Shown here in pieces: positions 22,860 to 60,100 of a DNA stretch of 64,000 nt. The position numbers and the translations under genes were made by a program. The stretch is taken from contig OZ320321.1 of assembly GCA_976226885.1 (NCBI GenBank), forward strand, positions 56,296,001 through 56,360,000, in the 5' to 3' direction. This DNA is from Iphione sp. A-MEVVRFRX5 (taxonomy: Eukaryota). Positions within the stretch are counted from its first letter, which is position 1. Every line of letters begins with the position of its first letter. The notes beneath the pieces were generated by a model. That model made no database searches and was not told where the DNA came from. It saw only the letters and a list, made by a program, of their open reading frames with translations.

Positions 22860-24300
22860 TAATTTAAAATAGCTGACCAAAATAACTATCAAAATTAGTG
22901 GAAAAACTTGTCTATAATAGGCTAGTTAAATATCTTGAAGAAACGCATTTTTTCTCACATGCTCAACACGTATTTAGATCTGGAAGAGGTACAAACACTG
23001 CCGTGGCCACCTTCCTCCAACATGCGTATGAAGCCCTGGATGAAGGGAAACATTTTGGCCTGGTGCTGTTTGACCTATCCAAGGCCTTCGATATGATTAA
23101 TCACAATATTGTCTTGCAGTGTCTGGAGAGCTGTGGCCTTGGGACCCAAGCAATGAGGTGGTTTCGTTCGTATTTAAATAGAAGGCAACAATATGTTAAG
23201 TGCAGTGGGATTCGTTCGTCTTTGCTTGATGTGGACATCGGTGTTCTGCAAGGTAGCCATCTCGGCCCTGTGCTCTTCTCTCTCGTTGTGAATTCTGCCC
23301 CATCCGCCTTAGTCATAGCAGAATCAATAGTATATGCTGATGACATCTCTGTCTTCTGATCTGCCAGTAATATTGCTGCTTTAAGAGTGAAGCTCACTAG
23401 AAGCAGAAAGGACGTGGTTGAGTGGGTGGGAGCACAGGGCCTGGTATTGAATGCACAAAAGACTCAATACATACTCTTTGGGAAATCAAGATCCTTCGAA
23501 CTTGACTTGGAGGTATTGGGTAACCGCATAGAGAAGAAATCAGCAGTGACATTGTTAGGCTTTACTATTGATGAGGTGCTGTCTTGGGTCCCTATGGCCA
23601 ATAATGTAAAACGGAGGGCCAGGCAGAGAGCTTGGGCTCTTTCAAAGGTCAAGGGAGTCATGAGATTTAAAGAGAGAGTCCTCATGTTTAAATCCTTCAT
23701 CTTGCCAATCTTTGATTATGGGCTTTTTTGCTCGTATGGCAGCACAAAAAAGGTGTAAGATAGCCTGCAGGTTGAGTTCAACAAGTGTCTACGTCTTGTC
23801 TTAAATAAGAGACCAGGTGGTCCCTCAGCGGTCTCCCTAAGACGACGAGTGGGCTTGGAGTCCCTTAGGACCAGAGGACTAAGACAAATTCTGACACTGG
23901 TTCCAAGACTATTGGACCAGGGCCTTCTCAAAGAGAATGGTGGTAAACGTGCCACTAGGCATAGTCTAGGTAGAACACTAAGAGTAAAGAAGCCAAAAAC
24001 ATCCAGGTATGCTAGATCATTTGTCTATTGTGGTGTAACTTGTTGGAACAAGCTGCCTGTGCACCTGAGGTCGGAAACGTCATTAAAAAGCATGATATGG
24101 ATGATTAAGAAAGTCTCACTAGATGGAGATTAATGTTGACATACTGTGTTAGACTTTTCGCCCATTATGTTGTCTTATTGTCCACTTATATGTCATCTGT
24201 TGTCAAATTCTTACCTTACATGACCAAACTACTGTCTTATTAATATGTATTTTCCCCAACATAACCAAATTACTGTCTTATTATTATGTATTTTTCTCTG
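22860..24300 (+). mobile_element. 5'-truncated CR1/L2-type LINE (RT plus C-terminus) with two nonsense mutations
   Basis: ORFs 22898-23359, 23387-23758 and 23849-24133 share one frame: FDLSKAFD, QGSHLGP, YADD, CWNKLP. AT-rich 3' UTR has a ~33-bp direct repeat (~24224-24297). Confidence 0.9.
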
Positions 24301-26407: not shown

Positions 26408-29125
26408 TCAGAATGTTGCAGAGTCCATGACATTTAGGCCTGTCGGGGACACTGTGTGTAGGCGGTGTATCCAGTTGTACTCAACTAGATCCCGTAATCT
26501 TTTTGCTCTCACGCTGTCTGGGGTGGCGTGGATGAAATCCACTATGTGGATTTCTATATCGGAAATGCCCTGGTGGTTCTCGGAGTTGAAGTGTTCTCCG
26601 ATGATAGAGTTGGCGGTTTTCCGTTTGATATTGCCGAAGTGACCTTGGAATCGGTCCATCAGTCTGTTTTTGGTTTGGCCCACATATTGTAGGCCACATC
26701 TAGTGCATGTGATGCAGTAGATGATGTTTGAGCTTTTGCAGCTCACGTTCATTTTGGAGGCATACAAGCGCTTGCTATAGCTACTCTTAATGGCTCCTGT
26801 TTTGTTAATCTTTGGGCAGTATCTGCACGTCCGGATGGTGCATGTATTGAGGGTGTGTCCTGCTGTGGCATTCTCTGGTAACGGTTCCAGTTTGGCTCGT
26901 ACTAGGAGGTCTCGGAGGTTTTTGGGTCTTCTCAGACCACATGTAAAGCCCATTTTGTAAGTGTCCCTTGTGGCGCATGATTTGCCCAATAGGTCCCAGT
27001 TGTCTTTGACACTACGTTTGAGACCGTCGTATGCTGGGTGGAATGTTGTAACTAATACGTTGGTCTCATCATTTGTTTTCTGGTGAGTATCCTGGGTCAG
27101 GAGTGTGTCCCGTGATTGTTTGCATACTTCATTGTATGCCGTGGTCACCAGGTCCAGTGGGTAGCCTTTGCTGATGAAGGCTCGGCCTAGTTTGACTGCT
27201 GAGTTTACAAAGTCTGTGTCTCTGCTGCTTATCCTGCGAGCTCGTAGGAGTTGGCCATAAGGGATGGCCTTTTTGCAATGTTGGGGGTGGCTTGATGAGT
27301 AGTGCAGGTAGTTAAAGCCATCAGTGGGTTTGTGGTAGACCCTGGTCTGTAACTCACCACTACTTGTGGTGAACACTGTCGTGTCCAGGAAGTTGATCTC
27401 CCTGGTCGACTTTTCAAGTGTGAACTTGATACTTTCATGGCAGTTATTGAGGTGGTCTACGAACCTATCTAGTTCAGGTTCGCCATGTGTCCACACAGCA
27501 AATATGTCGTCAATGTATCTGTACCATACCACAGGTTGGTGTCGGTAGGTATACACATGCTTCTCCTCTAGATGTGACATGAAGAGATTAGCGTATGTGG
27601 GAGCCACCCGGGTTCCCATGGCTGTTCCAGATATCTGCAGGTAGTGGTCACCGTAGAATCTGAAGTTGTTCATACGTAGGACCATGCTGAGTAGCTGGCA
27701 GATGGTTTCGGTCTTCAGGCTGCCTCGGTGTTGGGTCGGGGCATCATGCAGTAGTTCTTTTATTGCGGTGATTCCTCCCTTATGAGGGATGTTTGTGTAT
27801 AGGGACGTGACGTCCAATGTGCACAGAATGGTGTCCCGCGGTAGGGCGGTTATAGAGTTTATCTTTTGGAGGAAATCCGTGGTGTCCCTCACATAAGATT
27901 TTATTCCCCTTATGAGTGGTTGTAGTAGGATGTCGACCAGGGCTGAGATTTTCTCAGTGGGGCAGCCATTCGCTGAGACTATTGGTCGTCCCGGCGGCGG
28001 GTTGATACCTTTGTGGATTTTAGGGAGCAGATAGAACTCTGCTGTCCTGGGTTCTTTCGTTAACAGCTTCGGTAGTAGCTGTTCTGGGATTTCTCCCGAT
28101 GTGACTAGGGCGGACAGGAAAGTGTTGATCTTCCCAGTGTGTTCCTCAGTCAAATCATGGTCTACTTTTTTGTAAAAGCGGGTGTCGGACAGTAGTTTGA
28201 GTCCCTCGTTGATGTAATCCGATCGATTCAAGATTACAGTTTTTCCCCCTTTATCTGCCGGCTTTATGACTATTTCTTTTCGACCCTTTAGTGTCTTAAT
28301 GGCAGTAAATTCCCCCTTAGCTAGGTTTTTGTACTTGGGTGCATGTGGTATGGTTTTACTCACCTATAGCTCTGTCGCGTTGATGAAGGATTCCAACGCG
28401 ATGGGACCTGGTGGTGGGTTCCAGGTTCGCTCGGGGCGGAGTACCTTGGATTTCCGTACCTCTTTGGACCACGACGGTGTGGGTTCTGCATGCAAGGTTG
28501 TGGTAGACTGGCTGGCACTTACCTTGTGTGTTGTATCGGGTTTGCTAAAAAACGCCCTGATGCGGAGTGATCTCGCAAATTTATCTAAATCTTGCCCAAT
28601 GTCACCTAGGTGGGGTTCACCAGGTGTGGGGCAGAATTTTAACCCTCTTTCTAGCAATTTTGTTTCTTCGACACTTAAGATTTGGTTGGACAGATTCAAC
28701 ACAGTGGACTCAAGCGGAAACGGTTCGGTAATTTTATTTCTGAATTCTTCACAATCAATCAAATCTGGATATGATATAGGTGAAGTGCTCCTGGTTATAC
28801 CCTTCGGGATGGGTGGGGCGTGGGTGCCCATCGGTGGGGTGGGTTGGGAGCCTACGGTGAGACGGTCCCCATGGGGGTCACCAGTGGGGGGTGGTGGGGG
28901 GACTGGTGGTTGGGGATTGTCAGTCTGCCCAATGGTGTTCGTCGGGCGGGTGTATTTTACTGCGGGTCTTGTTGTCGGAAGGCTTTTATCAGTTCCTTCT
29001 CGCGTCTGGTAAGTGTCCACCCGTCGCGTGTCTGCCGTCGGTTCGGGGCATTGCGGCGGTTGGGGTTGGTGGTGTTGTTGGTCCTGGGTTGTCTGCGTCC
29101 CCGTGCCTGTCTTTGGGCCCCCCAT
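26408..29125 (-). pseudogene. Penelope RT/GIY-YIG ORF split by one in-frame TAG (28366-28364)
   Basis: ORFs 28364-29125 and 26408-28363 are contiguous in one frame: ...FINATEL*VSKTIPH... Confidence 0.85.
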
Positions 29126-29725
29126 GCCTGGGCATTGGTGCTGTTGGTGTGGGAGGCAGCCTGAAAACCCCCTTGTACCCGTCGGCCTGGGGCGGCATCG
29201 TTACGGTTTGGGTGGGGGCGTATCTGGTCGGGGCGACCTTGTGGGCCTTCTGTCGCAGGTGGTCGGTTCATGGCATTTAAAGTGGGCCAGACATTGTTTG
29301 CTGCTGTCGTGGGCATCAGGGATGGTGGCGGTGGGGGAGGGGGTTGGAGTTGGGCCGGTTGCATCATGGGTGGTGCTAGGAGGGCTTGTGGGGCGGTTGT
29401 GGTTGGGGGATACTGTGGGGGTTGGGAGGAGGCATCTAATATCTTCGAATAGGGCAGGGTCGGGCTGGCGTTGGATGAGAAAGTCAGTGCGTTTCTCGAG
29501 TTGCGCCTGAAGGGTAGCCCTCTCCCGTTCAACCTGTTCATAGAGTCTTTCCTTGCTTAGCTCGAAGTATGGGCAACCGGCTTCTCGCATCAGGTTGCCC
29601 ACGGTTTCAAGCACTCTGAGAGCTCCCTCTCGGTCGATGGCCGCTCTCTGGATCAGCCCATCCGCGACACAGTGTTGAACGCCATACGCGGATCGCTGTC
29701 GGTTGTAGCCGATGTCTCTCAGCAT
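28957..29725 (-). CDS. Putative Penelope upstream ORF1 (helical N-terminus, Pro/Arg/Asn-rich body) spread over two frames
   Basis: ORF 29201-29725 has a helical-looking start; overlapping ORF 28957-29541 ends WTLTRREKELIKAFRQQDPQ; both lie directly upstream of the RT ORF. Confidence 0.5.
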
Positions 29726-30249
29726 GTCGGGGTCTCTCGCGTAAAAATTTAATTAAAGATTTACATTACTTCCTGTTACAGTGAATATCCTATTTCACAC
29801 TCCAAGAAGGCCTATCCAGAAATGGTAGATATCTATCCTGAATATCCGTAACCCTGTCTATGTACCTAACTTAGGTCAAATAAATCTGAGTGTATATATA
29901 TACATGTACTTCACCATTGATTCCGTTTCATGATGGTGTACAGATGTCTTGTCCCTCAGATTTGGCACCCCTAAAATTGAGAGGTTCAGTGTTTGCATCA
30001 TTTTGAAAGGAATTGAATAGAAATTTATTTTATTTGCTTCTCATTGAGGTACACAATAAGTTCTTCCAGCGAATACAACATGATGAAATAAGTATAGGGA
30101 CAAAGTAATGAAGGTAAAGAAAAAATGAATATACTGAATACGAATTTACATTTAAACTAGACAACGAGATTAAATGTCATGTTAGACAGTTAGGTACGAC
30201 ATTATACAGTAAGACAAGTTAGTATGACGTGAGTCAATATTAGCTAATA

Positions 30250-36686: not shown

Positions 36687-36996
36687 TGTTGGAGCCACTG
36701 CGTGGCTGCGGCACCGCGGCACGCCAGAGGTGCTGCGGCACAGTGGACCGGACAGGCGGGGTGCAGCGGCACGCCCCCGTGCGGCACTCGAAGGGGTGCT
36801 GCGGAGTTTGAGGGGACGGTACCCGGATGCTGAAGAGACTGGGGGTGGGTATATAAGGGAGTTGGCCCACCTGGGCAGTTCAGATTACCTTTGGTACTCA
36901 CGGTTGGTGCTTACTGCTTGTGCCTTTATCGTTCTTATCGAATAAACCTCTTTATCTTAACTGGAGTCATGTCTTACTTACGGAGCGGACGCTACA
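36687..36996 (+). repeat. 5' LTR (310 bp)
   Basis: Matches 46649-46958 except A36980/G46942; TATATAA at 36850-36856; AATAAA at 36941-36946. Confidence 0.98.
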
Positions 36997-38414
36997 TTGG
37001 TGGCAGCGGTGGGATGGAGGAATTACCCACAGGTGCGCCGCGACCGCGAGGACGAGGGACGCGCCCTGCTCCCCGGGGAGGACGCATGGGACGTACCATT
37101 CCCCATGAGCGGTCCCCCACGAGAGGAGACTCCAGCACTGAGGACGAGGAGGTGCGGCTCGGGGCGCATCGTGTGCCGCGGGGCCGCAGCACCCCCCTGC
37201 GCCGCGGCACCCGACCGTGCCGCAGCACCCCATCGTGCCGCAGCGGCACAGCATTGTCCGACGAGGACCATTCGTCGAGCCGCAGCAGCAGTGAGGATTC
37301 TTCTGTGCCCAGCAGGGTCGGCTCGCCCCGTGGGAGGGGCAGTGATGACGCCACACCTGGAACCCCCACCGGGGTAGGAGGACAGGCAGGTGGGACGGCG
37401 AACCCCCGCGACCCCGCTACCCCGGCCCCCCCGCCGCCAGCGGCCCCGCCAGCCGGCCCTTCCCCGCCCAACCCGAGCCCGGCCGGGGGCGGACAAGGAA
37501 ATGCTGTACAGCTGATGCGGGGACTGATGGATGAGATCCAGTCCGCTCTCCGGCCCGCCCCCCCGGCGCCCCCGACGCGCCGGTTCCATGTTAAGCCGGA
37601 ACCCTTCAGTGGAGGAGTCCCCCTTGCAGAGTATCTGCATCACTTCTCCCTGGTGGCCCGGGCCAACCGATGGGATGAAGCGGAACAGGCGCTGCAACTC
37701 AGCGTGTGCCTCAGGGGCTCGGCGCAGTCCGCCCTCCGCTCAGCCAATGTGGATGTGTCCGCGGAGGGGGCGTTCTCGACCATTGTCGAAACCCTGCGAC
37801 AGAGGTTCCAGTCGGAGGATCGGGCCCAGTATTATGAGCAGGAATTAAAACAGCGTCGCCAGAAGAAGGACGAGGACGTCCAGAAATTAGCCGAGGAAAT
37901 CGAGAGGCTGGTACGGCAGGCCTACCCCGAGGCCGAGGGCTCCTGGCTGGATCGAATGTGCAAGGACGCCTTCGTCTCGGCCCTCTGCGAAGAGCGTTGC
38001 CGGAGGTGGGTCGTGCAAGCTAAAGCTCGGTCCTTTCAGGCAGCCATCTCGGAGGCGCTCTTGGCCGAGTCGTACCACCGCGCCGAGAAGGAGCGCAGCC
38101 CGGGGGCTGGGGCGACGCGGGTCCATGCGGCACAGGCTGAATCTCAAGAGGTGGCGGCCGCCAGCCATGACGCCAAGACGACAACCGGATTGGAGCGCAT
38201 TGAGCAACTCCTGGCCAAGCTACTAGAACAGCCCGCGACCGCCGCTTCCCCCGTTAGGCGGGGCGGAAAGCGCGCGAGCAACGAAGGATGCTTTTATTGC
38301 AAGGAGCCCGGGCACTTCAAGCGGGACTGCCCGGTGCGGAAGGCGGCCGAGAGTGTCGCTGAAGTTGCTCCGTCGCAGCCGGAAAACGAGAAGCCGCCCG
38401 CCCCGGCTCAGTAG
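36969..38414 (+). CDS. gag: Gag (capsid domain plus CCHC zinc knuckle)
   Basis: KPEPFSG...YLHHF...ANRW...LRGSA capsid-like region; CFYCKEPGHFKRDC knuckle. First ATG after the TATA box is 36969; an alternative in-frame ATG is at 37014. Confidence 0.9.
   Translation: MSYLRSGRYIGGSGGMEELPTGAPRPRGRGTRPAPRGGRMGRTIPHERSPTRGDSSTEDEEVRLGAHRVPRGRSTPLRRGTRPCRSTPSCRSGTALSDEDHSSSRSSSEDSSVPSRVGSPRGRGSDDATPGTPTGVGGQAGGTANPRDPATPAPPPPAAPPAGPSPPNPSPAGGGQGNAVQLMRGLMDEIQSALRPAPPAPPTRRFHVKPEPFSGGVPLAEYLHHFSLVARANRWDEAEQALQLSVCLRGSAQSALRSANVDVSAEGAFSTIVETLRQRFQSEDRAQYYEQELKQRRQKKDEDVQKLAEEIERLVRQAYPEAEGSWLDRMCKDAFVSALCEERCRRWVVQAKARSFQAAISEALLAESYHRAEKERSPGAGATRVHAAQAESQEVAAASHDAKTTTGLERIEQLLAKLLEQPATAASPVRRGGKRASNEGCFYCKEPGHFKRDCPVRKAAESVAEVAPSQPENEKPPAPAQ
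36998..37015 (+). promoter_or_regulatory. Primer-binding site, tRNA-Leu
   Basis: TGGTGGCAGCGGTGGGAT, 1 nt after the LTR, is complementary to the 3' end (AUCCCACCGCUGCCA-CCA) of animal tRNA-Leu(AAG/UAG). Confidence 0.9.
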
Positions 38415-39346
38415 GGCGGGCGGCGTCCGATTCCGTACCCTCCGGCCTGGGACCCCCCTTGGAGGCGATGGTCGCCGCCATCGAGGGGGAGACCAGGAGG
38501 GTACTGCAAGGAAGGAGGAGGACGGGGTGCCGGGGAGTACTGTTAGAAGGAGAAGTTGGCGGACAGGTGGTGGACTGGCTGGTGGACACAGCGGCCTCCG
38601 CTTCCCTCCTCTCGGCACGGTCCTACCGAGAACTACAGGGGGTGTCGTTGAACCCGGCGGGGGCACAAGTCTTCGGGGTGGACGGCAGCGCCCTACAAGT
38701 GTTGGGGCTGGTGGATTGCGAAGTTCGGTTCGCAGGGGCCACTCTACGGGTGGTGGCTATCGTGGTAGAGATGGAGATACCGGGCCTACTTGGTTTGGAC
38801 TGGCTGGATCGGTGGGCGGCCACAGTGGATACGAGGGAAGCCACAGTCACTGTTTGTCCCGGCCACCGCGAATGGGCGGCCACCCTGCGAGCCAGCGGCA
38901 GCCAAGAGATTCCTGCAGGAGGAATAGGCTGGGTTCAAGCGAAGGCGTGTCAAGGAGGGGTCGACTCTTTGGAAGGGTTGACAGAGGCTAACGCCCAGTT
39001 CGAGTCACGCTCGGGACTACGAGTGGCGCGCGCGCTGGTACGACCCCAGGAGGGGAGGGTGTGGGTTCCAGTGTGGAATCCCGGCCCCCAGGTGACACGA
39101 GTCTTCGAGGGAACCCGGCTGGCCGAGCTCAGCCGGGTCGCCGCAGTGCTTGGACCACCCGAGGCCCCCCGGGAGCAGGTAGAGGCAGAACAAGAGCAAG
39201 CGGTAGAATACTTGCTAGGGCAATTGCCGGTAGAGACCACCGACTCAGAGCGGCAGCAGATAGCGGCCATGCTACGGTGCCATCGCGAGGTCTTCCAGAC
39301 AGCCAGTGGCCCGCTCGGGCGTACCCCGGAAGTCCGACATCGCTAG
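38363..39346 (+). CDS. Aspartic protease plus dUTPase-like spacer domain (5' part of pol)
   Basis: WLVDTAAS (DTG-like site, D at 38585); GLLGLDWL; then a beta-rich V-W-N-P-G...GT-R-LA-E-L region; ends GRTPEVRHR*. Confidence 0.85.
   Translation, partial: SCSVAAGKREAARPGSVGRAASDSVPSGLGPPLEAMVAAIEGETRRVLQGRRRTGCRGVLLEGEVGGQVVDWLVDTAASASLLSARSYRELQGVSLNPAGAQVFGVDGSALQVLGLVDCEVRFAGATLRVVAIVVEMEIPGLLGLDWLDRWAATVDTREATVTVCPGHREWAATLRASGSQEIPAGGIGWVQAKACQGGVDSLEGLTEANAQFESRSGLRVARALVRPQEGRVWVPVWNPGPQVTRVFEGTRLAELSRVAAVLGPPEAPREQVEAEQEQAVEYLLGQLPVETTDSERQQIAAMLRCHREVFQTASGPLGRTPEVRHR
38381..38424 (+). promoter_or_regulatory. Putative -1 ribosomal frameshift signal (G_GAA_AAC plus GC stem-loop)
   Basis: Heptamer at 38381-38387; 5-nt spacer; perfect 11-bp stem 38393-38403/38414-38424. 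The pro frame is -1 to gag and open from 38363. Confidence 0.75.
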
Positions 39347-41930
39347 GCGCCTCCCCCCTCACAAGAGGGAGGCAGTTCGCGCGGAGGTAGACAAGATGGT
39401 GCAGAAGGGGGTGCTGGAGCCCTCCACAAGCCCGTGGGCATCCCCGCTGGTGCTCGTACAGAAGAAGGATGGGGGACTGCGGTTTTGTATCGACTATCGC
39501 AAACTCAACGCCATCACCAAGAAAGATGCGTTCCCCCTCCCTCGGATAGACGACACCCTCGATGCTCTACAGGGCAGCCAGTACTTTTCCGCGATCGACC
39601 TGGCCAGCGGCTACTGGCAGGTCGAGATGGAGCCGGCGGACGCGGAGAAGACGGCGGTGTGCACCCCGAACGGCCTTTACCAGTTCCGGGTAATGCCGTT
39701 CGGCCTCTGTAACGCGCCCTCCACCTTTGAGCGGCTTATGGAGTCCGTGCTGCGGGGCCTCGTGGGCACCGAGTGCTTAGTGTATCTCGACGACGTGATC
39801 GTCCTGGGCCGCTCGGTGGAGGAGATGTGCACTCGACTAGGCACGGTATTCCAGAGGCTGAGGGAGGCTGGACTCCGCGTCAAAGCATCCAAGTGCCAAC
39901 TATTCCAACGAGAGGTGGCATACCTGGGCCATCGGGTTTCGGCGGAAGGAGTGGGAGTCGACCCAGAGAAGATCAGGGCCGTCTCGCGATGGCCCCGCCC
40001 CCGGTGCGTAGCAGAACTTCGAAGCTTTCTAGGACTCTGCTCGTACTACCGCAGCTTTGTGGAGGGGTTTGCCACCCTGGCGGCACCCCTGCATGCCCTG
40101 GCTGGAGCGGAACAGGAGTTTCGGTGGTCCCCCGCCTGTCAAGAAGCCTTCGAGCAACTGAAGGCCCGGCTGTCCACTACCCCCATCCTGGGTTACCCGA
40201 CACCCGTGGGACAGCTGCTCCTGGATACCGATGCTTCGGACACCGGCATCGGTGCGGTGTTGTCCCAGTTGCAGGAGGGGCGCGAGCGGGTGCTGGCCTA
40301 CGCCAGTCGCACACTGACTCGCCCAGAACGGAACTATTGCGTTACGAGGAAAGAACTCCTGGCGGTGGTGTTCGCCCTCCGGAAGTTTAGATGCTATGTG
40401 GGGGGGAGAGCCATTGACATCCGCACCGACCACGATTCCTTGCGCTGGCTGTGCAACTTCCACGAACCACAGGGTCAGCTGGCCAGGTGGCTGGAGGAGA
40501 TCTTCTGTCACGACCTTCGGATCACGCACCGGCCAGGGAAGCGCCATGGTAACGCCGACGGACTATCACGGCAAGAATGCAAGCAGTGCGGCCGGCGAGA
40601 TCTGGAGTCCGAGAGTGCGGCGGCGGTAGGCATCGCCGGAGTAGAGGGCGGCCCCGACGTGTGCCAGATGCAGAGGATGGAACCGGCAACAGCCGAGCTC
40701 ATCCAAGCGCTAGAGGGAGGGGGGCCCCCCCCTGGGCTGCGGGCTGGACTGACCTGGGAGGAAAGACAGCTCAGAGCGGAAGGCCCGAGACTCGAGCTCC
40801 GATCGGGAGCACTGGTGCGCCTCTGGGAAGAGGAAGACCGGCAGAGGCTCCCCCAGACCTACGTCCCCCGGGCCATACGGAAGAGCCTCTGGCAGGAGAC
40901 CCATGCAGGCCCAGTGGGTGGCCACCTTGGTCCGGAGAAGACTGGAGCAGCGCTGCGCCGGCGCTGGTTCTGGCCCGGGATGTCGCGCGACGTCGCACGC
41001 TGGTCACAGTGCTGTCAGGCATGCCAACAAAGGAAAGGGCCAGGGAGGCGCCACCGGGCCCACCTGCAAGGACGCCCTGTGTCGGAGCCGTGGGAAGTGC
41101 TGGCGGCCGACATTTTGGGGCCACTGCCTGTGACGGAGAGAGGAAACAGGTATATCCTGGTAGTGGCCGACCACTTCTCGAAGTGGACAGAGGCGTTCCC
41201 TTTGGAGGAGGCCACCGCGGCGGCCACCGCCGACATCATCGTTAGGGAAGTGGTCTGCCGTTTCGGACCTCCACGGGTACTCCATTCGGACCAGGGCCGT
41301 AACTTCGAGGCGGCACTGTTCGTGGAAGTACTACGACTCCTCGGGATAGAGAAATCCCGAACCACCCCTTACCACCCTCAGAGTGATGGGGTGGTCGAGC
41401 AATTTAATCGCACCTTGGGGAACATGCTGGGCACGCTGGCTGAGGAGCGTCGGAAGGACTGGGACCAAGCCCTGCCGTTCGTGATGGCCGCCTACCGGGC
41501 CACCCCCCACAACGCTACGGGGGAATCACCGAACCAGACGCTGCTGCATCGAGAGGTGACACTGCTGGTGGAACTACGCTATGGTGGCCCGGCCCCACCC
41601 CTGGTGGATCGTGGGGAGTACGCAAACCGGATAGCGGAAGAGGTCCGCCGAGCGCATGAGAAGGTGGCGGAGAAATTGAGTCGTGTGGCCGAACAGCAGA
41701 AGGACTGGTATAACCGAGGGGTGAGACACCAACGGTACGCCGAGGGTGACCGAGTCTGGCTTTTCACCCCGGCTCGCAAGAAAGGGATCTCCCCGAAGCT
41801 GCAGAGCTGGTGGGAGGGGCCTTGGACCGTGGTAAAGGCGTTGTCCGAAGTGGTGTACCGAGTTAGTCGGGGACATCGGCAGAGAGTGGTCCATGCTGAT
41901 CGCCTGAAGATCGCCCATCTCGACCCCCAG
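39339..41930 (+). CDS. pol: Pol: reverse transcriptase, RNase H, integrase (part of ORF 39306-46475)
   Basis: SPWASPLVLVQKKDGGLRFCIDYRKLN; YLDD (39783-39794); DTDAS; HHCC finger; DILGP, HSDQG and GVVE core; WEGPW motif. Confidence 0.97.
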
Positions 41931-44900
41931 GTGACGTGCGGCGTTCAAGGAGCCGCAGCGGCACAGGACGAGGGGCAGCGGATTCGAGAAGAAGCCGCAG
42001 GGCCGCTCGGCCTTACCATGACGATAGAGGGCGCCGCAGCCGCATCTCTGCATATAAGAGGCAGCGCGCTGGGGCCCGTCCCGCCGACCGCAATACCGCG
42101 TGATTCGACCGCTAGTCTCCAGGCGGCGCCAGGGGAGCCGCAGGAAGTTGCACCCGAGCGACACCACACGATCCACAGCGTCGTGATCTACGCCACACGT
42201 GTCGAGCGCCAGCCGGACGCACTTACACCCGCTAACCAGAAAATATCGACCCAGGGCCGCTGCGACAAGGAGGAAGCCGCTGCCACTCAGCGTCTGTTTT
42301 CAACGAGGGACTCGCCGCAGCAGCACGAGGTGAGGAATCCACCATTGGTAGCCGCACATATGGGCGATAACCGGGGTAACGGGAGAAAGCCGCGTTGGGT
42401 GAGCGGCGAAGGTCGTGATGCACCCTTGTTTTTCGATGAAGTGTGTGATAAACCTGTCGCCGCTGCGGAGGGAACTACCTGGAACCGTTACTCTCACGGG
42501 TACCTTTCTTCCGCAGCTCGACTGGCGTGCCGCGCAGGGGTGGACTGTAGCCGCACCATTCCCCTCCGACGCAGTGGCCGCAGGCTCGCCCGCTCCAGTG
42601 GGGTTGACGTGCCCCTGCCGCTGTGCGGCAATCTGACGGACGCAGCGCCGCGGCCCGGGTGCCGGGACGCTGCCGCGGCATCACCAGGCGACACCCAGCA
42701 ACAAGAGGATCGCCGCAGTACCGCGCCCAGCCACCCACGCGGGGAGATCCACGACGCCGCAGAGGCCGACCTTGCCGCGCCAGGGCCGATCCAGACCCGC
42801 AGTGCCGCTGCGGCCCTCGCTGTTCCGCCACCGGGCGGCCGTGCGGATCGCGCCTCGCCAGGGCCGCATCGCCGCAGCGACGACATGGCAGATGTACCTG
42901 AGGACGTCCCCCCGCCCAGCGCTGAGAGCAACGACTCAGAGTCTTCTGGCGAAGAGGAGCCAAGTGCCCCAGAGGAACGCCGTCACCGTTGCTCTCGTTG
43001 TGCGTCTACCTTCGCACAGCCATCCAACCTGCGCCGCCACCTGAAAGACGTGCATGCGCCGGAGGGGTTGGGCTGGTTGTGCCCCGACCCCGAGTGTGAG
43101 CAGCAAGCCTTCCACCGGCGCACCGACTGGAAGCGACACCTGAACGGGGTGCACGAGCCCAACGACTGGGCCCTGACGGTGGATCTCCAGTACTTGCGGT
43201 TCTGGGGCCTCAACCCCACCTACGGGGAACCGCGGCTCTGCCCGGCCGACAAGATGGAGATGTTGCAGCGAGCCCGGGCCCGGGAAAAGAAGAGCCGGGA
43301 GAAGGAGGTGCGCCGGGCAGCGGGCCGACTTCCGACGCAGAGGGGGGCCTCCAAGCGGGGTGGTAAGAAAAGAGGGCGCTCCGCTACGCCGGAGGAAGGC
43401 AGCGACAGCCGAGCAGAGGGACCGCCCGCGACGACCCCAGGGGCTGCAACCCAGCTGCAGCAGGAGCCCGACGCCGGTCAGTCAGCCGAGCAGCCAGAGG
43501 ACCAAGCAGGGCCTCCACCAGTGCAGCCGTCGACGTCTACTGGCACGTCGACCCCGTCGGGCCCCCGAGCCATCGGGGGGACGCGGAGGGCCCGACGGCG
43601 ACGGGGAGCGTCCACCCGTCAGAGGAGAGATCCCCCTCCCAGTTCGTCGGAGGAAAGTGCTCTACTGTCCGCTCGGGCGCCAGGGGTGGTATCCCGGACG
43701 GTGTCGTCGGGCCCGCCGGGTGAGGAGGAGACCATGGCCGGGGATGCCGATCAGAGTGGGAGTAGCTGCGCCGGACCCCCCCCACCGCCCGCAACCACCA
43801 GAGCGCCGGAACCGGATAGGGGGGCACCGCCGCGCCCTCCGGGCGCTGAGGGTGCCACTGTTGCCCTGGAGGGGCGAGGGACTGACCTCCCCGCGGGTGC
43901 CCCACACCGAGGACCGCAAACCCCACCGGGTCCCCCGCCTAGTAGTAGTTCGGGCCGGGACTCTTCCACCGACGAGGCGCGGCGCTTGGTGAAGGAGTGG
44001 GCTGCCAGCGCCCTGCGCGGAGAAGGGGCTGACCGTCGCGCCCCGGGGCCTCCAGCGTCGACTATGCCCGATCTTCCGCCAGACAGTGAGAGAGGAGGGT
44101 CCGACGTCTCCGGTCAGACGTCAGACCGCGGCACGGGGACTCCCGACGAGGCGGGGGATGGTGACACTCCTTCCACGGCCGAGCCCTCGCCCCAGGAAGC
44201 ACTAGGCCAGTGCACTGGCTCTACGGGAGCCGCGACAGGAGACAGCCAGGGCAGTGGAGGATCGGGACCACCGCCCCGCCTAGACCAGCGGCTGGCGACT
44301 CGCACGTATGCGAGGTCGCACCGCCCTCCCCCCCAGGAAGAAGGAGGACGGGACGCCCCCCCACCGCAGCCAGAGGTAGCCACGCCCGACACTATAGACC
44401 TGCCTGCAGGGGCGTTGCACTACAAGGGACGCAGGCTGTTCCTGGACTCGGCCAGCCAGACGTCAACGGATGAACCTCCCCCGCAGCTGCGGGTGGTCCT
44501 CCCCCGGGCGTCGACCGTGGAGCCGAGGAGCGAGGGACTGCCCGGACTCGCCGGTGCGGCGGGGACTCGCCAGGTGGGAGTACGGGCGACGTTTAGGGCC
44601 TCCCCCGCGGCTCGGTCGGCCGGATTGTCACCCCCCTGTCGCCTCCCTGGCATGGGCAGGGGTGCCCCCGGCCGCCGAGGAGAGCCCAGGCCGGGAACCC
44701 CGATGGGAGCGCCATCGTGGGAGGAAGAGGAGAGTCGGCTGGACGAACGCCTAGGCGTAGGTTGGGAACGGCCGGTGGAGGGCGACGTGGTGGACCTTGT
44801 GACACCGCCCGGGTCCGTTGCGCCATCGCCGGCCAAGAGGCCGAGATTGAAGGGAGCCGCGGGGGCCGACCCAGCTGGGGAGCCCTTGACCGCGGGCCCG

Positions 44901-46475
44901 GCCGGGGCACACGGGTCCTCGAGTGAAGGACAGACCCTCGGCGATGACGGTGAAGAGGACCAGGAGCTGGCGACTCTCTTCGAAGAGGAATCCTCGGAAG
45001 AGGAGCCGGAACCTCCCCCCGACGACATGGCCTCGCGCCCGCGCGGCTCACCTGCGCCTGACACCGCTCCCAGGGGTCCTCAGCCGGCCATGCCCACCGA
45101 ACCGAGGGCTCCTCCGGGGCCCAACGGCGCAGACGCAGCCGGAACCGCAGCAAGATCTCCGAAGAGCCTGTCGCCGGCAGCGGTCCCAACGTCAGTAGCG
45201 CGAAAGGAGGCAGAGACGGAGAAGGGTCCAGATGGCGGCGTGAGACCCAACCCTACTGCCGCCGAGGGGGCCGGCCCGACGTCCGACCCCACGACCAGTT
45301 CAGCCGCCGAGCCAACCGTCGCAGAGACGCCAGCGGAGAGCCCGCGGGGCATGCCCACCACCCTGGGGCGGGGAGGCGAGGAGGCGACGTCGGGCCCAGG
45401 GCGGGCACACGAACCCAGCGGGCCGACGGGGGACGAGGTGGCCACAACGGGGGAGGTTGAGTTAGCCACCAGCCCCGCCGCCAACCCCACCGCAGACCCG
45501 ACCCCCGGGGGATTACCGACTGAAGGGCGACGAGAAGACGCTACCGAGGGGACGACGAGTCCAGAGCGGCCTGGAGAGCCGAGGGACCCGGCGGAGGGGG
45601 GGCATCGCCCCCCTCCACTTCATCTCCAGCTGTTGCCGCAGCCCTCGCGAGGGAGAGGGAACTGGTCCGCAGGACGGACGCGGGGCAAAAGCATGTCCCC
45701 AGTGCCAGGGACAACTCGACCAGAAGGGCCCCGCCGGAAGCAGGGCGGAGCCGGCGTGCCTGTGACGGCTGGAGGGGGCACGGAGGGCCGCGGTCGAGGG
45801 CCCCTTTTCGCGTCCACCCCAAGAACCCCCGGAGGCGAGGGAAGAGCGAGCCCTCGCGGAGTGGCCCCCGTCAGACCTTGGGAGGACCCGACAACAACAG
45901 CTGTGCCAGGAGGGCGTCCGCGCGGGCCGACACCGGGCCCTGGCCGCGGAGCACGCCCCCCGTCGGGCCCCTCCCTGGTGCTGGGACCACCGGCGCTCCC
46001 CGGTCCAGAGGGGTGGGGGACACGGCCACGCTTCCCCCCGGGCCCGTCCGCTCCTCCCAGCGTACCTTGGCCGGGCCGGCCAACCCCCGGAACAGGAGCA
46101 CCATTACAGGATGTGTCGGGTTCGTCGGGAGCGGAAGAGGAGGTTCCGGCCGCCGTATACGTCTGGGCGGCATCACGCTTGGTGTCGCCTGAGTCTACCC
46201 TACCACCCGGGTGGATGATTATCTCCAACTCCTCGGCACTGGACGTGCAGGTGCTTACCGCCGGACAGGTGAAAGTCGTCCTCCGGCAGACCGTCACGTT
46301 CCGACGGCTCGGGGTGCCGGTCCCAGGCAGCGAGCTGGCCACGTGGTATGCCAACTACGGGACGGTGCTAACTCGGGGCCGTCCAGTGCGGCTCCTGTCC
46401 ACGTGGCGGGAGGAGCCCACCGCCGGGGGTAATGTGGAAGTTCACATCCACGAGTCATGGACAGTTTATCTGTGA
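41931..46475 (+). CDS. Uncharacterised ORF3 fused in frame to integrase: 2x C2H2 zinc finger, long disordered region, unknown C-terminal domain
   Basis: 1514 codons without a stop after integrase. CSRC...HLKDVH and CPDPEC...HLNGVH at 42990-43154; strong-context ATG at 42885; no signal peptide or TM helix visible. Confidence 0.85.
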   Translation: MTCGVQGAAAAQDEGQRIREEAAGPLGLTMTIEGAAAASLHIRGSALGPVPPTAIPRDSTASLQAAPGEPQEVAPERHHTIHSVVIYATRVERQPDALTPANQKISTQGRCDKEEAAATQRLFSTRDSPQQHEVRNPPLVAAHMGDNRGNGRKPRWVSGEGRDAPLFFDEVCDKPVAAAEGTTWNRYSHGYLSSAARLACRAGVDCSRTIPLRRSGRRLARSSGVDVPLPLCGNLTDAAPRPGCRDAAAASPGDTQQQEDRRSTAPSHPRGEIHDAAEADLAAPGPIQTRSAAAALAVPPPGGRADRASPGPHRRSDDMADVPEDVPPPSAESNDSESSGEEEPSAPEERRHRCSRCASTFAQPSNLRRHLKDVHAPEGLGWLCPDPECEQQAFHRRTDWKRHLNGVHEPNDWALTVDLQYLRFWGLNPTYGEPRLCPADKMEMLQRARAREKKSREKEVRRAAGRLPTQRGASKRGGKKRGRSATPEEGSDSRAEGPPATTPGAATQLQQEPDAGQSAEQPEDQAGPPPVQPSTSTGTSTPSGPRAIGGTRRARRRRGASTRQRRDPPPSSSEESALLSARAPGVVSRTVSSGPPGEEETMAGDADQSGSSCAGPPPPPATTRAPEPDRGAPPRPPGAEGATVALEGRGTDLPAGAPHRGPQTPPGPPPSSSSGRDSSTDEARRLVKEWAASALRGEGADRRAPGPPASTMPDLPPDSERGGSDVSGQTSDRGTGTPDEAGDGDTPSTAEPSPQEALGQCTGSTGAATGDSQGSGGSGPPPRLDQRLATRTYARSHRPPPQEEGGRDAPPPQPEVATPDTIDLPAGALHYKGRRLFLDSASQTSTDEPPPQLRVVLPRASTVEPRSEGLPGLAGAAGTRQVGVRATFRASPAARSAGLSPPCRLPGMGRGAPGRRGEPRPGTPMGAPSWEEEESRLDERLGVGWERPVEGDVVDLVTPPGSVAPSPAKRPRLKGAAGADPAGEPLTAGPAGAHGSSSEGQTLGDDGEEDQELATLFEEESSEEEPEPPPDDMASRPRGSPAPDTAPRGPQPAMPTEPRAPPGPNGADAAGTAARSPKSLSPAAVPTSVARKEAETEKGPDGGVRPNPTAAEGAGPTSDPTTSSAAEPTVAETPAESPRGMPTTLGRGGEEATSGPGRAHEPSGPTGDEVATTGEVELATSPAANPTADPTPGGLPTEGRREDATEGTTSPERPGEPRDPAEGGHRPPPLHLQLLPQPSRGRGNWSAGRTRGKSMSPVPGTTRPEGPRRKQGGAGVPVTAGGGTEGRGRGPLFASTPRTPGGEGRASPRGVAPVRPWEDPTTTAVPGGRPRGPTPGPGRGARPPSGPSLVLGPPALPGPEGWGTRPRFPPGPSAPPSVPWPGRPTPGTGAPLQDVSGSSGAEEEVPAAVYVWAASRLVSPESTLPPGWMIISNSSALDVQVLTAGQVKVVLRQTVTFRRLGVPVPGSELATWYANYGTVLTRGRPVRLLSTWREEPTAGGNVEVHIHESWTVYL

Positions 46476-46635
46476 TCCTGAGAAGCGGATATAGCTGACG
46501 ATCGGACTGTCCCTGGATTCGCGACATTACGTGATTGTGTCACCGGACTTGAACGCAGACCGCCCCCGGACTCGAGCATGTTGTCTAGTTACAGTTACGG
46601 TTGGGGAGTGAGTTGCTTGGGGACAAGCAACCTCT

Positions 46636-46645
46636 AAGGGGAGGG
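46636..46645 (+). promoter_or_regulatory. Polypurine tract
   Basis: AAGGGGAGGG, 3 nt before the 3' LTR. Confidence 0.85.
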
Positions 46646-46648
46646 TAA

Positions 46649-46958
46649 TGTTGGAGCCACTGCGTGGCTGCGGCACCGCGGCACGCCAGAGGTGCTGCGG
46701 CACAGTGGACCGGACAGGCGGGGTGCAGCGGCACGCCCCCGTGCGGCACTCGAAGGGGTGCTGCGGAGTTTGAGGGGACGGTACCCGGATGCTGAAGAGA
46801 CTGGGGGTGGGTATATAAGGGAGTTGGCCCACCTGGGCAGTTCAGATTACCTTTGGTACTCACGGTTGGTGCTTACTGCTTGTGCCTTTATCGTTCTTAT
46901 CGAATAAACCTCTTTATCTTAACTGGAGTCATGTCTTACTTGCGGAGCGGACGCTACA
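46649..46958 (+). repeat. 3' LTR (310 bp)
   Basis: Direct repeat of the 5' LTR; TG...CA termini. Confidence 0.98.
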
Positions 46959-48622: not shown

Positions 48623-49273
48623 GTGCAGTCTCCACACCCACTCACTGAAAAGATATCTGAGAAATTTAGCAAAACATTCTCACTTTTATATTGATTTATC
48701 ATGCACCAAACTATGATTGAAATTGTGGATATTTGCATGATGATAACAATCCCAGGCGTTCAATATGAACTCCCGTATCCATTTGGTTCATTTTTAGTGA
48801 ACATACGTAAGAATGCTCTGTCCAACTCATATCAAATTTTGGAATTAACACTCAGTAACCATGGAGAGCCAGTCACATGACCTGTAAAATCCTCAACAAT
48901 GGGCATGTTCACATATGATTTAGACATATGACTACAAATATGTCCTAAATATTTAAATAACTAATGAATTACTTTTATTTTACCAAAGTCGTTTCCACTA
49001 TCCGAGGGTTTTTTCCCTACAGCTTATCACAAGTGTTCAACGAATCATTAGTGGGAACAATATTGAAAGTATGTCATTTGATGTCCTATAACCATGTTTA
49101 TCAAGGCTTTAAATTAGAGGCAGTTCTTACATATTATTTTCTGTTTACTATTCAACTCTCCAAAGTGTAAACATCCATTGTTCTTCCCAAACTGTCCTGA
49201 TTTCGGATGTGTCTGCTGTCTAGATCATGAGCAGCATGATTATGATAAGTGAGTAGACTTATGACAGGCTACA

Positions 49274-49400
49274 ATCCTAAAAGTGCTGAATTTGATGAGT
49301 AAAAATCCTAAAAGGCTGAATTTGACAAGTAACAGTCGTAAAAGTTCTGAATTTGATGAGTAAAAGTCTGAAAGAACTGAATTTGATGAGGAAAAGTGCC
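49274..49400. repeat. ~30-bp tandem repeat, 4 copies
   Basis: ctgaatttga at 49286, 49316, 49347 and 49377. Confidence 0.9.
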
Positions 49401-55306: not shown

Positions 55307-55786
55307 TATCCTAATGATTTTATCATTAAAACTATAGTGGTGGAAACTTAGATGTTTTTTGAACAGTGTGGAAAAAACATAGACCGTTTAGAAGAAAACT
55401 GGATGATTGTCATGAAATAGGGGAATTGCCGATGAACCACAATAATATGGAATGTACGAGTTTAGCTCAGATGGCAGGAGCGTGGCTTGCCTAATCCATG
55501 TGCATGGCGTTTGAACCTTTGGAACAGCTGAGCAAAACACACCAAAGGATACATCCAACTCCAAACCAGCTTGCCTGAGGCTATGGCCAGCATATGATCC
55601 TGTTCTCTTGCACAACAGACCTACTAAGAAGTAAGAGTAGAGGCCGACCCTGGAGTCTCATCAACAGTAGACGAGTATACTATCCAACGATAACATGGGA
55701 GAGCAGCTTGGAGAGAGCCGAAAGTTCGAGGGAGGCTGGTGTATTTTTTTTTGAATTGAACATGTTTATTCTGGAACTTATACATA

Positions 55787-56401
55787 TTGGGTTGGCCAAT
55801 ACGTGTTAATTATTATCCTGGCGCAACAATTAACACTCTTACAGAAGAAATATTGGCGCAGAATTTGTCACCAACACCCTCTATTATAGTTATCTTGATT
55901 GGAGGAAATGACTTGACGCAGAAACACATGTCGAAAAGGAATGATGGCAGTTATGTACGGTATATACTCCCCAACTATTTGTCTGACAGTGACGCTGTCG
56001 AGGATATAGGCAGAAAACTACGTGTGATGCGCTATCATGTCCAGGAGAAATTTCCTGCCAGTTCTGTAATGCTGTGTACTATATTTGCCAGAAGCTACAA
56101 TGAAATGAATTGGAGGATGAATGGGAGTGACCCAAACACCGAGCTGGGTGGACGTATCGAAAGGATGATTATATCGGCAGTGCACAGTATAAATCAAGTA
56201 ATTACCAACATTAACTTGATACATGGGATACCGACTCCGAGAGTACATACTGTGTTACATTCGAGATTCCGTGGTCGTTGGAGAGACAGATTGACACGTT
56301 TGAGGGATGGCTGTCATCTCAGAACGAAATGGAAGTCCTACTTGGTGCGATATGTGATTGATGGTATACGGCGTCTTTATAGACAGTTGTATAATGTGTA
56401 G
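55787..56401 (+). CDS. SGNH/GDSL esterase-like domain (LINE ORF1), block I disrupted
   Basis: Block II YPGAT, block III IGGNDL, block V RDGCH; the expected DS block position coincides with an in-frame TGA at 55757. Confidence 0.75.
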   Translation: MGWPIRVNYYPGATINTLTEEILAQNLSPTPSIIVILIGGNDLTQKHMSKRNDGSYVRYILPNYLSDSDAVEDIGRKLRVMRYHVQEKFPASSVMLCTIFARSYNEMNWRMNGSDPNTELGGRIERMIISAVHSINQVITNINLIHGIPTPRVHTVLHSRFRGRWRDRLTRLRDGCHLRTKWKSYLVRYVIDGIRRLYRQLYNV

Positions 56402-57126: not shown

Positions 57127-60100
57127 ATGATATCCCTGTATTATTTAAATGTTTGTTCGATACAGAGGAAGTTGGACGAAATTTCAGTTATGATGAGTCG
57201 TTATAAGATGGACTGTTTAATCCTGTCTGAAACTTGGTTGCATGACAGATACCCCGATACGCTATTGGCAAAACGAGGATATAACTTTTATAGGTAGGAC
57301 AGACACTATGGTAGGGGGGGAGGTATTTTATTCTACTTTGCTAGTAACCTAACTGGAGTATTTACTGTAATGGAGGATCTGAAAGTAGTAAACAGAGATA
57401 TTGAACTTATCTGGTTGAAGATAAATATAAGAAATAGAGTGACAATTATGGTATGCTCTCTATACAGACCCCCACATGGGAATCTTGAAGCAGCTTTAGA
57501 TATATTATCGGAGCATATGGATAGAATTCGCAATAGACATCCGAAATGTAAGTTGATGTTGGTAGGGGATTTTAATGTGAATTGGCTAGTGCATAACAGG
57601 GAAAGAGATACATTAATGGATCTGGCTGTACGCTATGATCTGTATCAACTGGTAAAGGCGAGCACTAGAATTACTGCCAGATCAGAAACAATGATTGATC
57701 TAGTGTTATCTGATTTAAATAATAGTGATATTCTTGTAGATGTAATTGGCTATACAGTTAGTGATCACAATTTGTTAGAAATGATATTGTCATTTGACAA
57801 TGTAAAAAGATATACCAAAGTGAGATATCGGGATTGGAAAAGGGTTACGTTAGAGAATCTAAGGGTAGAGCTGGGCAAGTTTAACTGGACTAGTATAGCT
57901 TGGATAAATAATATACAGGGCAAGTGGGACTTAGTGGAACAGGTATTTTCTGAAGTGATAAATCGTATCTCACCGCTGAAAGAAAAAAAGTGTGTTGCAA
58001 AGTCTCCATGTTGGATGACAGGGAAAGTGAATCAGTTAGTTGAAGAAAGAGATCGAGCTCTCCGTAGGTATAGGAAAAGTGGAGGTGAATATGATAAGCT
58101 AATTCTGAGATTGGCTAAATATAAAGTTAGGAAGGAACTTAGAAAATCAAGGAGGGACTACATAGAAAGAGCTGCCTTACTAAATGCAGATAATCCTAGT
58201 CGGTATTGGAGATTTTTACCGTTAGAATTAGGAATGAAGGCGCAAGGGTCAAACCCACAACTAGTAAATGAGGTGGGTGATGTTTTGTCAGATCAGGAGA
58301 TGGCAAGTAAAATGAATAAATACTATGTCACCATTGTTAGGGATATGATATCAGGGATTCAGGACTGCCAAGTGGCCTTTCCACTGGAGGAATTGGTTGA
58401 GAATAGGGATCAATTGGCATTAGAGCAGTTTACAGTAGAAGAATGGTGTACGGCCATTGCCGACCTGAAAGGTAATAAGGCTTCTAAATTCTTAGACATG
58501 CCGATAAAGCTATTCAAAGATGTATTTGTAGATCTGACTCTAGAGCTATTACCTATTTATAATGAAAGTTTACTAACAGGTGAACTACCAAGGCAGTGGA
58601 AATCAGCTACCATTGTGCCGATACATAAAGGAGGAAGTATAAATGACATGAAGAATTTCAGACCTGTGAGTTTGTTACCTGCGACAGTAAAAATAATGGA
58701 GAAGATGATAAATAAACGTATACATGATTATCTTGAAGGCAAGGAACTTAGAAAATCAAGGAGGGACTACATAGAAAGAGCTGCCTTACTAAATGCAGAT
58801 AATCCTAGTCGGTATTGGAGATTTTTACCGTTAGAATTAGGAATGAAGGCGCAAGGGTCAAACCCACAACTAGTAAATGAGGTGGGTGATGTTTTGTCAG
58901 ATCAGGAGATGGCAAGTAAAATGAATAAATACTATGTCACCATTGTTAGGGATATGATATCAGGGATTCAGGACTGCCAAGTGGCCTTTCCACTGGAGGA
59001 ATTGGTTGAGAATAGGGATCAATTGGCATTAGAGCAGTTTACAGTAGAAGAATGGTGTACGGCCATTGCCGACCTGAAAGGTAATAAGGCTTCTAAATTC
59101 TTAGACATGCCGATAAAGCTATTCAAAGATGTATTTGTAGATCTGACTCTAGAGCTATTACCTATTTATAATGAAAGTTTACTAACAGGTGAACTACCAA
59201 GGCAGTGGAAATCAGCTACCATTGTGCCGATACATAAAGGAGGAAGTATAAATGACATGAAGAATTTCAGACCTGTGAGTTTGTTACCTGCGACAGTAAA
59301 AATAATGGAGAAGATGATAAATAAACGTATACATGATTATCTTGAAGATAATGAGCTCTTTTGTAATGAACAATATGGTTTTCGGAGGGGGCGGGGTACA
59401 GAGATGGCCTGCGGTAAGTTACTAGACTATATGAATGGCTATTTGAATGATAAATACTATGTTGCATTATGTTTCATAGATTTTTCAAAAGCCTTTGATT
59501 CGGTAGATCATTTAATTTTGCTGCAGAAGATGAGTTGTATTGGGTTGAAAAATTTAACATATTGGATGAAAGCCTATTTGGCTAATAGGAGTCAGCAGGT
59601 AAATATTGGTGATAGTTACTCGGATTTTGAAACACTGTTAACCGGGGTACCACAAGGCTCAATCTTGGGCCCTACTTTGTTTTTGATTTACATTAATGAC
59701 TTCCCCAGAATCATGAATGATGTCGATTGTTTGATCTACGCAGATGATATTGTACTTATAGCACATGATAAAGATGGAGAAGCGGTGAAGAAAAAGTTGG
59801 AGTGCACTATGAAAAGTGTGATGCTATGGTCCCAGCAAAATAAGATCCTACTGAATGTGAATAAGACGAAGATTATGCTACCGACTTACCATGAAATGCA
59901 ACCATGTACGTCAATGAAGGTAGGAGATGTTAAGTTTGATGTTGTCACCAAGTATAAATATTTAGGGGTAACCATTGATGCAAGATTAACCTGGGTACCG
60001 TTTATGAAGGAAATAATAAGGAAAGGATACCACAAGTATGGTCTATTATGTAGAGTAAAACCATACGTTAATACCCGAATTATGAAGAAATTGGTATTAA

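Follow-up and report, generated by a model that had tools for sequence, protein, structure and literature searches.

Organization of the element

A Ty3/gypsy retrotransposon of 10.3 kb was located at nt 36687–46958 of the forward strand in a stretch of 64,000 nt (hereafter the window, to whose first letter all positions refer) from Iphione sp. A-MEVVRFRX5 (GenBank assembly GCA_976226885.1, contig OZ320321.1, positions 56,296,001 to 56,360,000). Downstream of the integrase region and in frame with pol, it possessed a third coding region, open reading frame (ORF) 3, for a C2H2 zinc-finger protein, and the features of the linker between the two suggest that this protein is probably also made from an internal transcription unit with an intron in its 5′ untranslated region (UTR). 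The 5′ long terminal repeat (LTR; 36687–36996, 310 nt, TG...CA), with a TATA box near nt 36851 and GC(A/T)GCGG motifs in U3, differed by 1 mismatch from the 3′ LTR (46649–46958), and an ATAT target-site duplication flanked the element. The primer-binding site (PBS; 36998–37015), which we take to be tRNA-Leu-like, contained a weak phase-1 donor-like sequence, GCG/GTGGGA, at 37008/37009, and a polypurine tract (PPT) was present at 46636–46645. With its TG...CA LTRs, target-site duplication, PBS, PPT, and gag-pol order, the element is a member of the Ty3/gypsy group (Metaviridae).

At least 44 other copies were found in the genome of 1.18 Gb. Family A, as used here, comprises the window copy and 44 others, of which 39 came from a DNA search (82% to 98% identical over the query) and 5 from a pattern search; LTR pairs within the family differed at 0–14 of about 310 sites. 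At least seven sister families encoded Pol-ORF3 frames of 2366–2740 aa, with fingers sharing 46% to 58% identity, and the finger pair was encoded at no fewer than 150 places in the genome. Comparisons between families were based on 19 loci, namely the window copy and 18 sister loci, representing eight diverged families, with the degenerate locus L157 left out.

Gag was encoded by nt 36969–38414, with a Retrotrans_gag/PNMA-like capsid region and a zf-CCHC domain (Pfam). Its frame likely starts at ATG 36969 inside U5, reading through the LTR end and the PBS; this ATG was kept in 40/40 covered family-A copies, and a homologous U5 ATG with its frame was present in all 17 sister loci covering that region. 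The 5′ part of pol, encoding the aspartyl protease (38363–39346), lay in the -1 frame relative to gag, and a low-diversity block (38393–38422) in the gag/pol overlap (38363–38422) may stimulate frameshifting. In the window copy, Pol was broken by the stop at 39344–39346 and a frame change, both caused by a short deletion that was private to this copy when compared with the others. A single open frame (39264–46475) encoded reverse transcriptase (RT), RNase H, integrase, linker, and ORF3, amounting to 2403 codons here and 2715–2742 codons in unbroken copies; past integrase it stayed open for about 1500 further codons, through the linker, two C2H2 fingers, a low-complexity region, and a folded C-terminal domain. 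The Pfam domain order of Pol was protease-RT-RNase H-integrase, and the Pol homologues listed shared 29% to 61% identity.

Splice sites in the linker

The best splice donor, GAG/GTGAGG (42327–42335, junction 42329/42330), lay in the linker in phase 0 of the Pol frame. When scored with matrices of general site frequencies, as distinct from ones trained on this host (the TATA scores below are of the same kind), it ranked first of 506 GT sites; its GT occurred in 41/41 copies, with the highest mean score among the conserved GTs in nt 36880–42500. The acceptor was one already pointed out in an earlier note on this DNA: CTCAC lies at 42493–42497 and TACCTTTCTTCCGCAG ends at 42516, both as described there, and the junction 42516/42517 proved to be conserved and likely used, with CAG in 43/43 family-A copies and the best score of all AGs in the linker. 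The two sites predict an intron of 187 nt (42330–42516; 3n+1) with a branch-like CTCAY (42493–42497), a pyrimidine tract, the acceptor AG at 42515–42516, and three ATGs (42360, 42418, and 42436), two of which are out of frame. Diversity at fourfold sites was 0.008 around the acceptor (12 sites) versus 0.175 in the RT-integrase region (417 sites), and the least variable 30-mers of the whole element were 42449–42478 and 42499–42528.

In 19/19 loci the best linker donor was in phase 0 and the best acceptor, 148–442 nt downstream of it, in phase 1; a matching pair was absent from all 168 control windows, which overlapped one another and were drawn from pol/gag and the body of ORF3, under thresholds set after the fact from the observed minima. 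The intron was likewise 3n+1 in every locus, such that a spliced Pol frame would stop after 1–39 codons (39 in the window copy). In families F and G (L151–L155) this stop came after one codon, with a TGA overlapping the ORF3 ATG (ATGA or TGATG) that could allow reinitiation. In family E (L149/L150), tandem repeats had expanded on both sides of the intron, those beyond the acceptor being composed of the GCAGCGG motif, with frame and splice sites kept. A GATA-containing motif (CGATAA in the window copy) at 42360–42375, about 30 nt into the intron, recurred in sister families, and the in-frame ATG 42360, present in 40/41 copies, could serve as the start of a longer ORF3 when the internal RNA stays unspliced.

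The linker is also coding sequence. Over nt 41910–42884, shared variants introduced 1 stop in the main frame, as compared with 22 and 24 in the two remaining forward frames. Shared indels in the linker kept the frame though its amino acids drift almost freely, and part of the intron, with 12 synonymous variants and 6 non-synonymous ones, was under coding constraint. The Pol-ORF3 polyprotein appears from these sequences to be real, and ORF3 likely exists in two forms, as a tail of Pol and as a free protein. Two other coding arrangements were considered and rejected, namely a cassette exon (42123–42329) read in another frame, the alternative frames carrying shared stops, and a second coding frame after the acceptor, which was contradicted by stops and showed no synonymous excess.

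A hairpin, which the two least variable blocks can form by pairing and which covers the pyrimidine tract and the acceptor, was predicted at 42462–42517. Its 80-nt window had a z of -6.3, the lowest of 59 control windows reaching -3.6, and z ranged from -1.3 to +1.0 in the sister loci. An RNA structure conserved across families was therefore rejected, the hairpin being significant in family A alone. The whole intron folded no better than shuffled sequences (z -0.9), and an Rfam search gave no match.

Predicted internal promoter and leader

A putative internal TATA box (TATAAGAG at 42053; 42051–42060) was observed upstream of the donor. TATAA was kept at 42053 in 40/42 copies, though the neighbouring codons change between His/Arg/Leu and Arg/Lys/Asn, and it was the best TATA-like 8-mer of the internal region in the window copy. 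A TATAA 187–331 nt upstream of the donor was present in 12/19 loci; among the 17 loci scored, 10 had one, and in nine of these ten it outscored every other TATA-like 8-mer of that region. In families C and D, the TATA was accompanied by a block at +23 to +37, with identical spacing across a diverged spacer.

From the TATA spacing, a non-coding exon 1 was predicted at 42082–42329, which has no ATG in the window copy. Taking one locus per TATA-bearing family, predicted exon 1 (1145 nt in all) held a single ATG, as opposed to 17 across 1107 nt of intron and 6 across 1250 nt of upstream sequence. Downstream of the acceptor, the first ATG was in the ORF3 frame in 18/19 loci; in families F, G, and L156 it followed after 2–12 nt. 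In the window, as the earlier note had it, the sole ATG in nt 42517–42890 is 42885 (GACATGG); it was kept in 12/12 context variants among those listed and is likely the ORF3 start. An RNA started in the LTR would be unable to reach ATG 42885 by scanning, and the clean leader with its in-frame start therefore argues for a transcript started in the linker. Within predicted exon 1, a 60-nt block (42120–42180) was nearly invariant at all codon positions; candidates for its role are a downstream promoter element, a splice enhancer, or a cleavage site.

The ORF3 protein

The predicted stand-alone protein of ORF3 (42885–46475, 1196 aa) had an acidic N-terminus, two C2H2 fingers, basic clusters, a Pro/Gly/Ala-rich region of about 900 aa, and a folded C-terminal domain. 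The fingers (42990–43154) carried Q, S, N, R and R, T, D, R at helix positions -1/2/3/6, and five base-contacting helix residues were invariant in 9/9 aligned sequences. Synonymous to non-synonymous ratios of 69:12 in the fingers and 95:18 in the C-terminal domain indicated purifying selection. The latter, an alpha/beta domain (46128–46472) predicted with a local distance difference test score (pLDDT) of 88, was conserved across sister families; Foldseek gave no match for its fold at an E of 0.001 or lower, and Atlas matches stayed below 0.9. Its best structural match, a phage neck/tail-completion chain (Z 7.7, root-mean-square deviation 4.3 over 103 residues), was rejected as falling within the range of common folds.

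No homologue of ORF3 was found among proteins of 725–2309 aa, and none matching the C-terminal profile among proteins of 213–2000 aa, the latter being weak evidence. For the fingers, the 150 matches listed were generic C2H2 proteins, none of them with an RT. ORF3 had no signal or transmembrane segment, the best 19-residue hydropathy being 0.91. With its basic clusters and acidic stretches, the protein may, more speculatively, be a nuclear DNA-binding regulator.

The donor at the start of gag

The earlier note had proposed that ORF3 is expressed in the manner of errantivirus env, from a subgenomic mRNA starting at ATG 37014 and spliced from CAG/GTGCGC at 37032/37033 (37014–37038) to the acceptor in the linker. 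The letters of the window copy are as it described, the donor lying 19 nt into the frame in phase 1, and the two exons join in frame to 3978 nt, that is, 1325 aa and a stop. The in-frame join carries little weight, however, since any GGT codon for a Gag Gly gives a phase-1 GT that would join the acceptor in frame. Scoring placed the acceptor first among the AGs of the linker, as mentioned above, but this donor only eighth of the 506 GT sites.

Nor did donor and start withstand comparison with other copies, the check by which the earlier note had itself said its proposal could fail. GT was present at 37033 in only 17/40 copies, the dinucleotide in the 39 other aligned copies being GT in 16, GC in 12, GG in 6, and GA in 5; the site is variable because the T is the third (wobble) base of a Gag Gly codon. 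ATG 37014, the AT of which is the end of the PBS, was present in 28/39 other copies, replaced by ATT, ATC, or ATA in the remaining 11, and found in 0/17 sister-family loci. Two young copies with GG at the donor site had LTR pairs differing at 1/288 sites and uninterrupted frames, and the lineage has therefore moved without this donor. Splicing of the errantivirus env type from a donor at the gag start was thus not borne out, given that no strong donor was conserved there across sister families and that ORF3 is devoid of envelope features. Judging by the sequence, cryptic use of 37032/37033 in the youngest subfamily may still occur.

The GC(A/T)GCGG motif

All five of the most enriched 7-mers in the linkers belonged to GC(A/T)GCGG, which was found in 8/8 families; one example was counted 50 times in 8.8 kb of linker and 23 times in the 40 kb taken from pol and the body of ORF3. 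Sites were present in 15/17 LTRs, and clusters of them lay in U3, at the 5′ end of gag, and in the internal promoter. In family A, variability was 0.071 in the motif versus 0.152 in its surroundings, the positions not being independent of each other. For the ORF3 finger pair, the C2H2 recognition code predicts GCG-GAA, a partial match to the motif. A motif common to the LTR and the internal promoter hints, by analogy, at self-regulation like that of foamy viruses; it is possible instead that the motif is due to a host factor or partly to Ala-Ala codon usage.

Interpretation

These features are best explained, with a probability that we put at roughly 0.6, if the acceptor belongs to an internal-promoter transcription unit with a 5′-UTR intron, from which the C2H2 protein is made at ATG 42885 alongside Pol-ORF3. 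A promoter downstream of integrase would start a short transcript near nt 42082, splicing of 42330–42516 would remove three upstream ATGs from its 5′ UTR, and translation of free ORF3 would begin at ATG 42885. The genomic RNA driven by the LTR would have to retain the intron, since none of the copies examined lacks it; in family A, splicing may be damped by the hairpin that covers the acceptor, and an LTR-driven RNA spliced at 42330–42516 would, owing to the 3n+1 length, end Pol 39 codons on and yield Pol without ORF3. More speculatively, the ORF3 product would bind the clustered GC(A/T)GCGG repeats described above. Since the predicted promoter lies downstream of the pol break, the window copy could still make ORF3, and the view of the earlier note that ORF3 can be expressed without Pol, even from this copy, is likely to hold.

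Several observations weigh against this explanation. The loci are related by descent, so the 19/19 stands for about eight lineages, and the phases of donor and acceptor follow from the open Pol frame. No convincing TATA was seen in family G or L156 (5 loci), and family E had only a distant TACATAAA, after which an ATG-free stretch followed in one of two loci. Predicted exon 1 is clearly poorer in ATGs than the intron, but compared with the upstream sequence alone the difference is weak (1 versus 6), and 8/42 family-A copies had an out-of-frame ATG in predicted exon 1. The hairpin could account for part of the invariance of the acceptor in family A. Intronless genomic copies were not found in the families examined: in family A there was none in 42 matches with CAG at the exon-2 start and 41 without it (one extra match was unrelated sequence), and, judged by match positions, families G, B, and D had no exon-exon-adjacent match pairs among the candidates scored, at most 40 for each. 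Regarding the motif, it often coincides with Ala-Ala codons, and GCGG was followed by C at 58% of the linker sites and by A at 26%, unlike the GCG-GAA of the recognition code.

The main rival, which we consider improbable but which can coexist with the promoter model, takes the linker intron as a switch on LTR-driven RNA, unspliced RNA giving Pol-ORF3 and spliced RNA giving Pol without ORF3, with no internal promoter. The constant 3n+1 length, the early stop in the shifted frame, its overlap with the ORF3 ATG in families F and G, and the open Pol-ORF3 frame are all in line with it; it leaves unexplained the TATA box, the ATG-poor leader, and the in-frame first ATG, and the spliced RNA would keep both PBS and PPT, yet intronless copies were not found in the families searched. 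Less probable again is env-like splicing from the weak PBS donor at 37008/37009, by which a Gag peptide initiated in U5 would be joined in phase 1 to the acceptor. That donor had GT in 40/40 copies and was present in every sister PBS, its phase from ATG 36969 fits the phase-1 acceptor, the U5 ATG occurred in 17/17 sister loci, and errantivirus env is described as acquiring, by splicing, a short peptide from upstream or from Gag (10.1101/2023.08.03.551782). Its score, however, was about 4.4 bits versus 9.4–10.5 for the linker donor, the invariance of its GT is already explained by tRNA priming and that of the U5 ATG by gag, and linker donor, TATA, and leader would be left without explanation.

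We find it hard to credit the subgenomic mRNA joining 37032 to 42517 for a 1325-aa ORF3. Its sites and phase are correct and CAG/GTGCGC occurred in 14/40 copies, including those closest to the window copy; against it stand the loss of GT in most copies (GG or GA in 11/39 others) and of ATG 37014 in 11/39 copies and 17/17 sister loci, the upstream in-frame ATG being conserved instead. Least likely of all, in our estimate, is that there is no functional splicing, ORF3 being released from the polyprotein by protease and the conserved block being an RNA structure or a protein-binding element. The open frame, the coding constraint in part of the intron, the strong hairpin of family A, and the failure to find intronless copies would fit this, but a canonical donor, a branch-like motif, and an acceptor persist in eight lineages whose linkers are poorly alignable, and the hairpin is significant in one lineage only.

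Other features of the window

An RT ORF with a GIY-YIG-like C-terminus was present at 26408–29752 on the reverse strand, with Pro-rich frames upstream; by its motifs we take it to be Penelope-like. Non-LTR RT ORFs, presumably CR1/L2-like, were located at 57298–60558 (forward), 61411–62712 (reverse), and 22886–23359 (forward), the first with an exact internal duplication of about 200 codons that is possibly recent or an assembly artefact. Upstream of a non-LTR RT, a 213-codon frame with a GGND motif (55760–56401, forward) resembles what we assume to be SGNH/GDSL esterase ORF1 proteins. A tandem repeat array with a unit of about 30 nt was found at 49262–49383.

Comparison with known systems

Gypsy elements are usually treated as simple units driven by host factors, in which a third gene, if there is any, is an envelope spliced from the LTR. 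P0239 (ENA; profile E 3.6e-12) was the one among the 120 Pol homologues listed with the same layout of Pol plus two fingers. As in the present element, protease-RT-RNase H-integrase is followed by a linker, a Met directly precedes two C2H2 fingers joined by the same GW-L-CP motif, and the sequence beyond is of low complexity; P0239 differs in the recognition residues, and its C-terminus gave no match to the C-terminal profile. A radiation of at least eight families in one genome, with a similar protein elsewhere, appears to use the logic of complex retroviruses, in which a second promoter is combined with an intron under regulation and a DNA-binding protein that the element itself encodes. Were this so, copies broken in pol, like that of the window, could provide the regulator in trans. 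In the open-access literature searched, no description was found of a gypsy element with a Pol-C2H2 fusion and an internal promoter, and a prior description may exist.

The errantiviruses (gypsy, ZAM, Idefix, and springer) resemble the element in their Ty3/gypsy backbone and in a third coding region behind a post-integrase acceptor (10.1101/2023.08.03.551782), but ORF3 has no signal or transmembrane segment and is fused to pol, and the 5′ donor is not conserved; from its sequence, the element is not an errantivirus. In Cer1 of C. elegans, CERV is encoded by a non-envelope 3′ ORF in the polyprotein frame and is also made separately via splicing; it is described as a nuclear regulator of the element's RNA, with a cerv mRNA of five exons that begins with gag-frame exons (PMC10309623). 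A non-env 3′ ORF in frame with the polyprotein is present here as well, whereas no conserved strong donor was found on the gag side and an internal promoter is predicted. Other non-env third ORFs are those of rotifer elements, said to be typically spliced (PMC5408684).

In Tor3b and Tor4b of Oikopleura, the third ORF is reported to be expressed from an internal promoter (Penv), which lies inside pol in Tor3b, and not by splicing from the LTR; the product is a transmembrane Env, and the products of rapid amplification of cDNA ends gave no evidence of splicing (PMC4402516). An internal promoter for the third ORF, predicted in our case, would be common to both, but ORF3 is a soluble zinc-finger protein with a predicted 5′-UTR intron and not a transmembrane Env. 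In foamy viruses (Spumaretrovirinae), Tas is reported to act on the two promoters of the virus (PMC13220597, PMC7828637, PMC517496, and PMC4929722). The likeness would lie in an internal TATA, a small intron, and a motif common to both promoters, all of them predicted here, whereas the present element is Ty3/gypsy without env, and its candidate regulator would be a C2H2 protein that is also fused to Pol. By this analogy, an envelope-less gypsy clade might conceivably, though we hold it doubtful, have convergently evolved a two-promoter circuit of the foamy-virus type, in which its own C2H2 factor binds the motif at both promoters and switches the element on, and in which the form attached to Pol could tether integrase to DNA. 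Among the systems compared, the arrangement would seem to work most like the foamy-virus internal promoter with Tas and the internal env promoter of Tor3b/4b.

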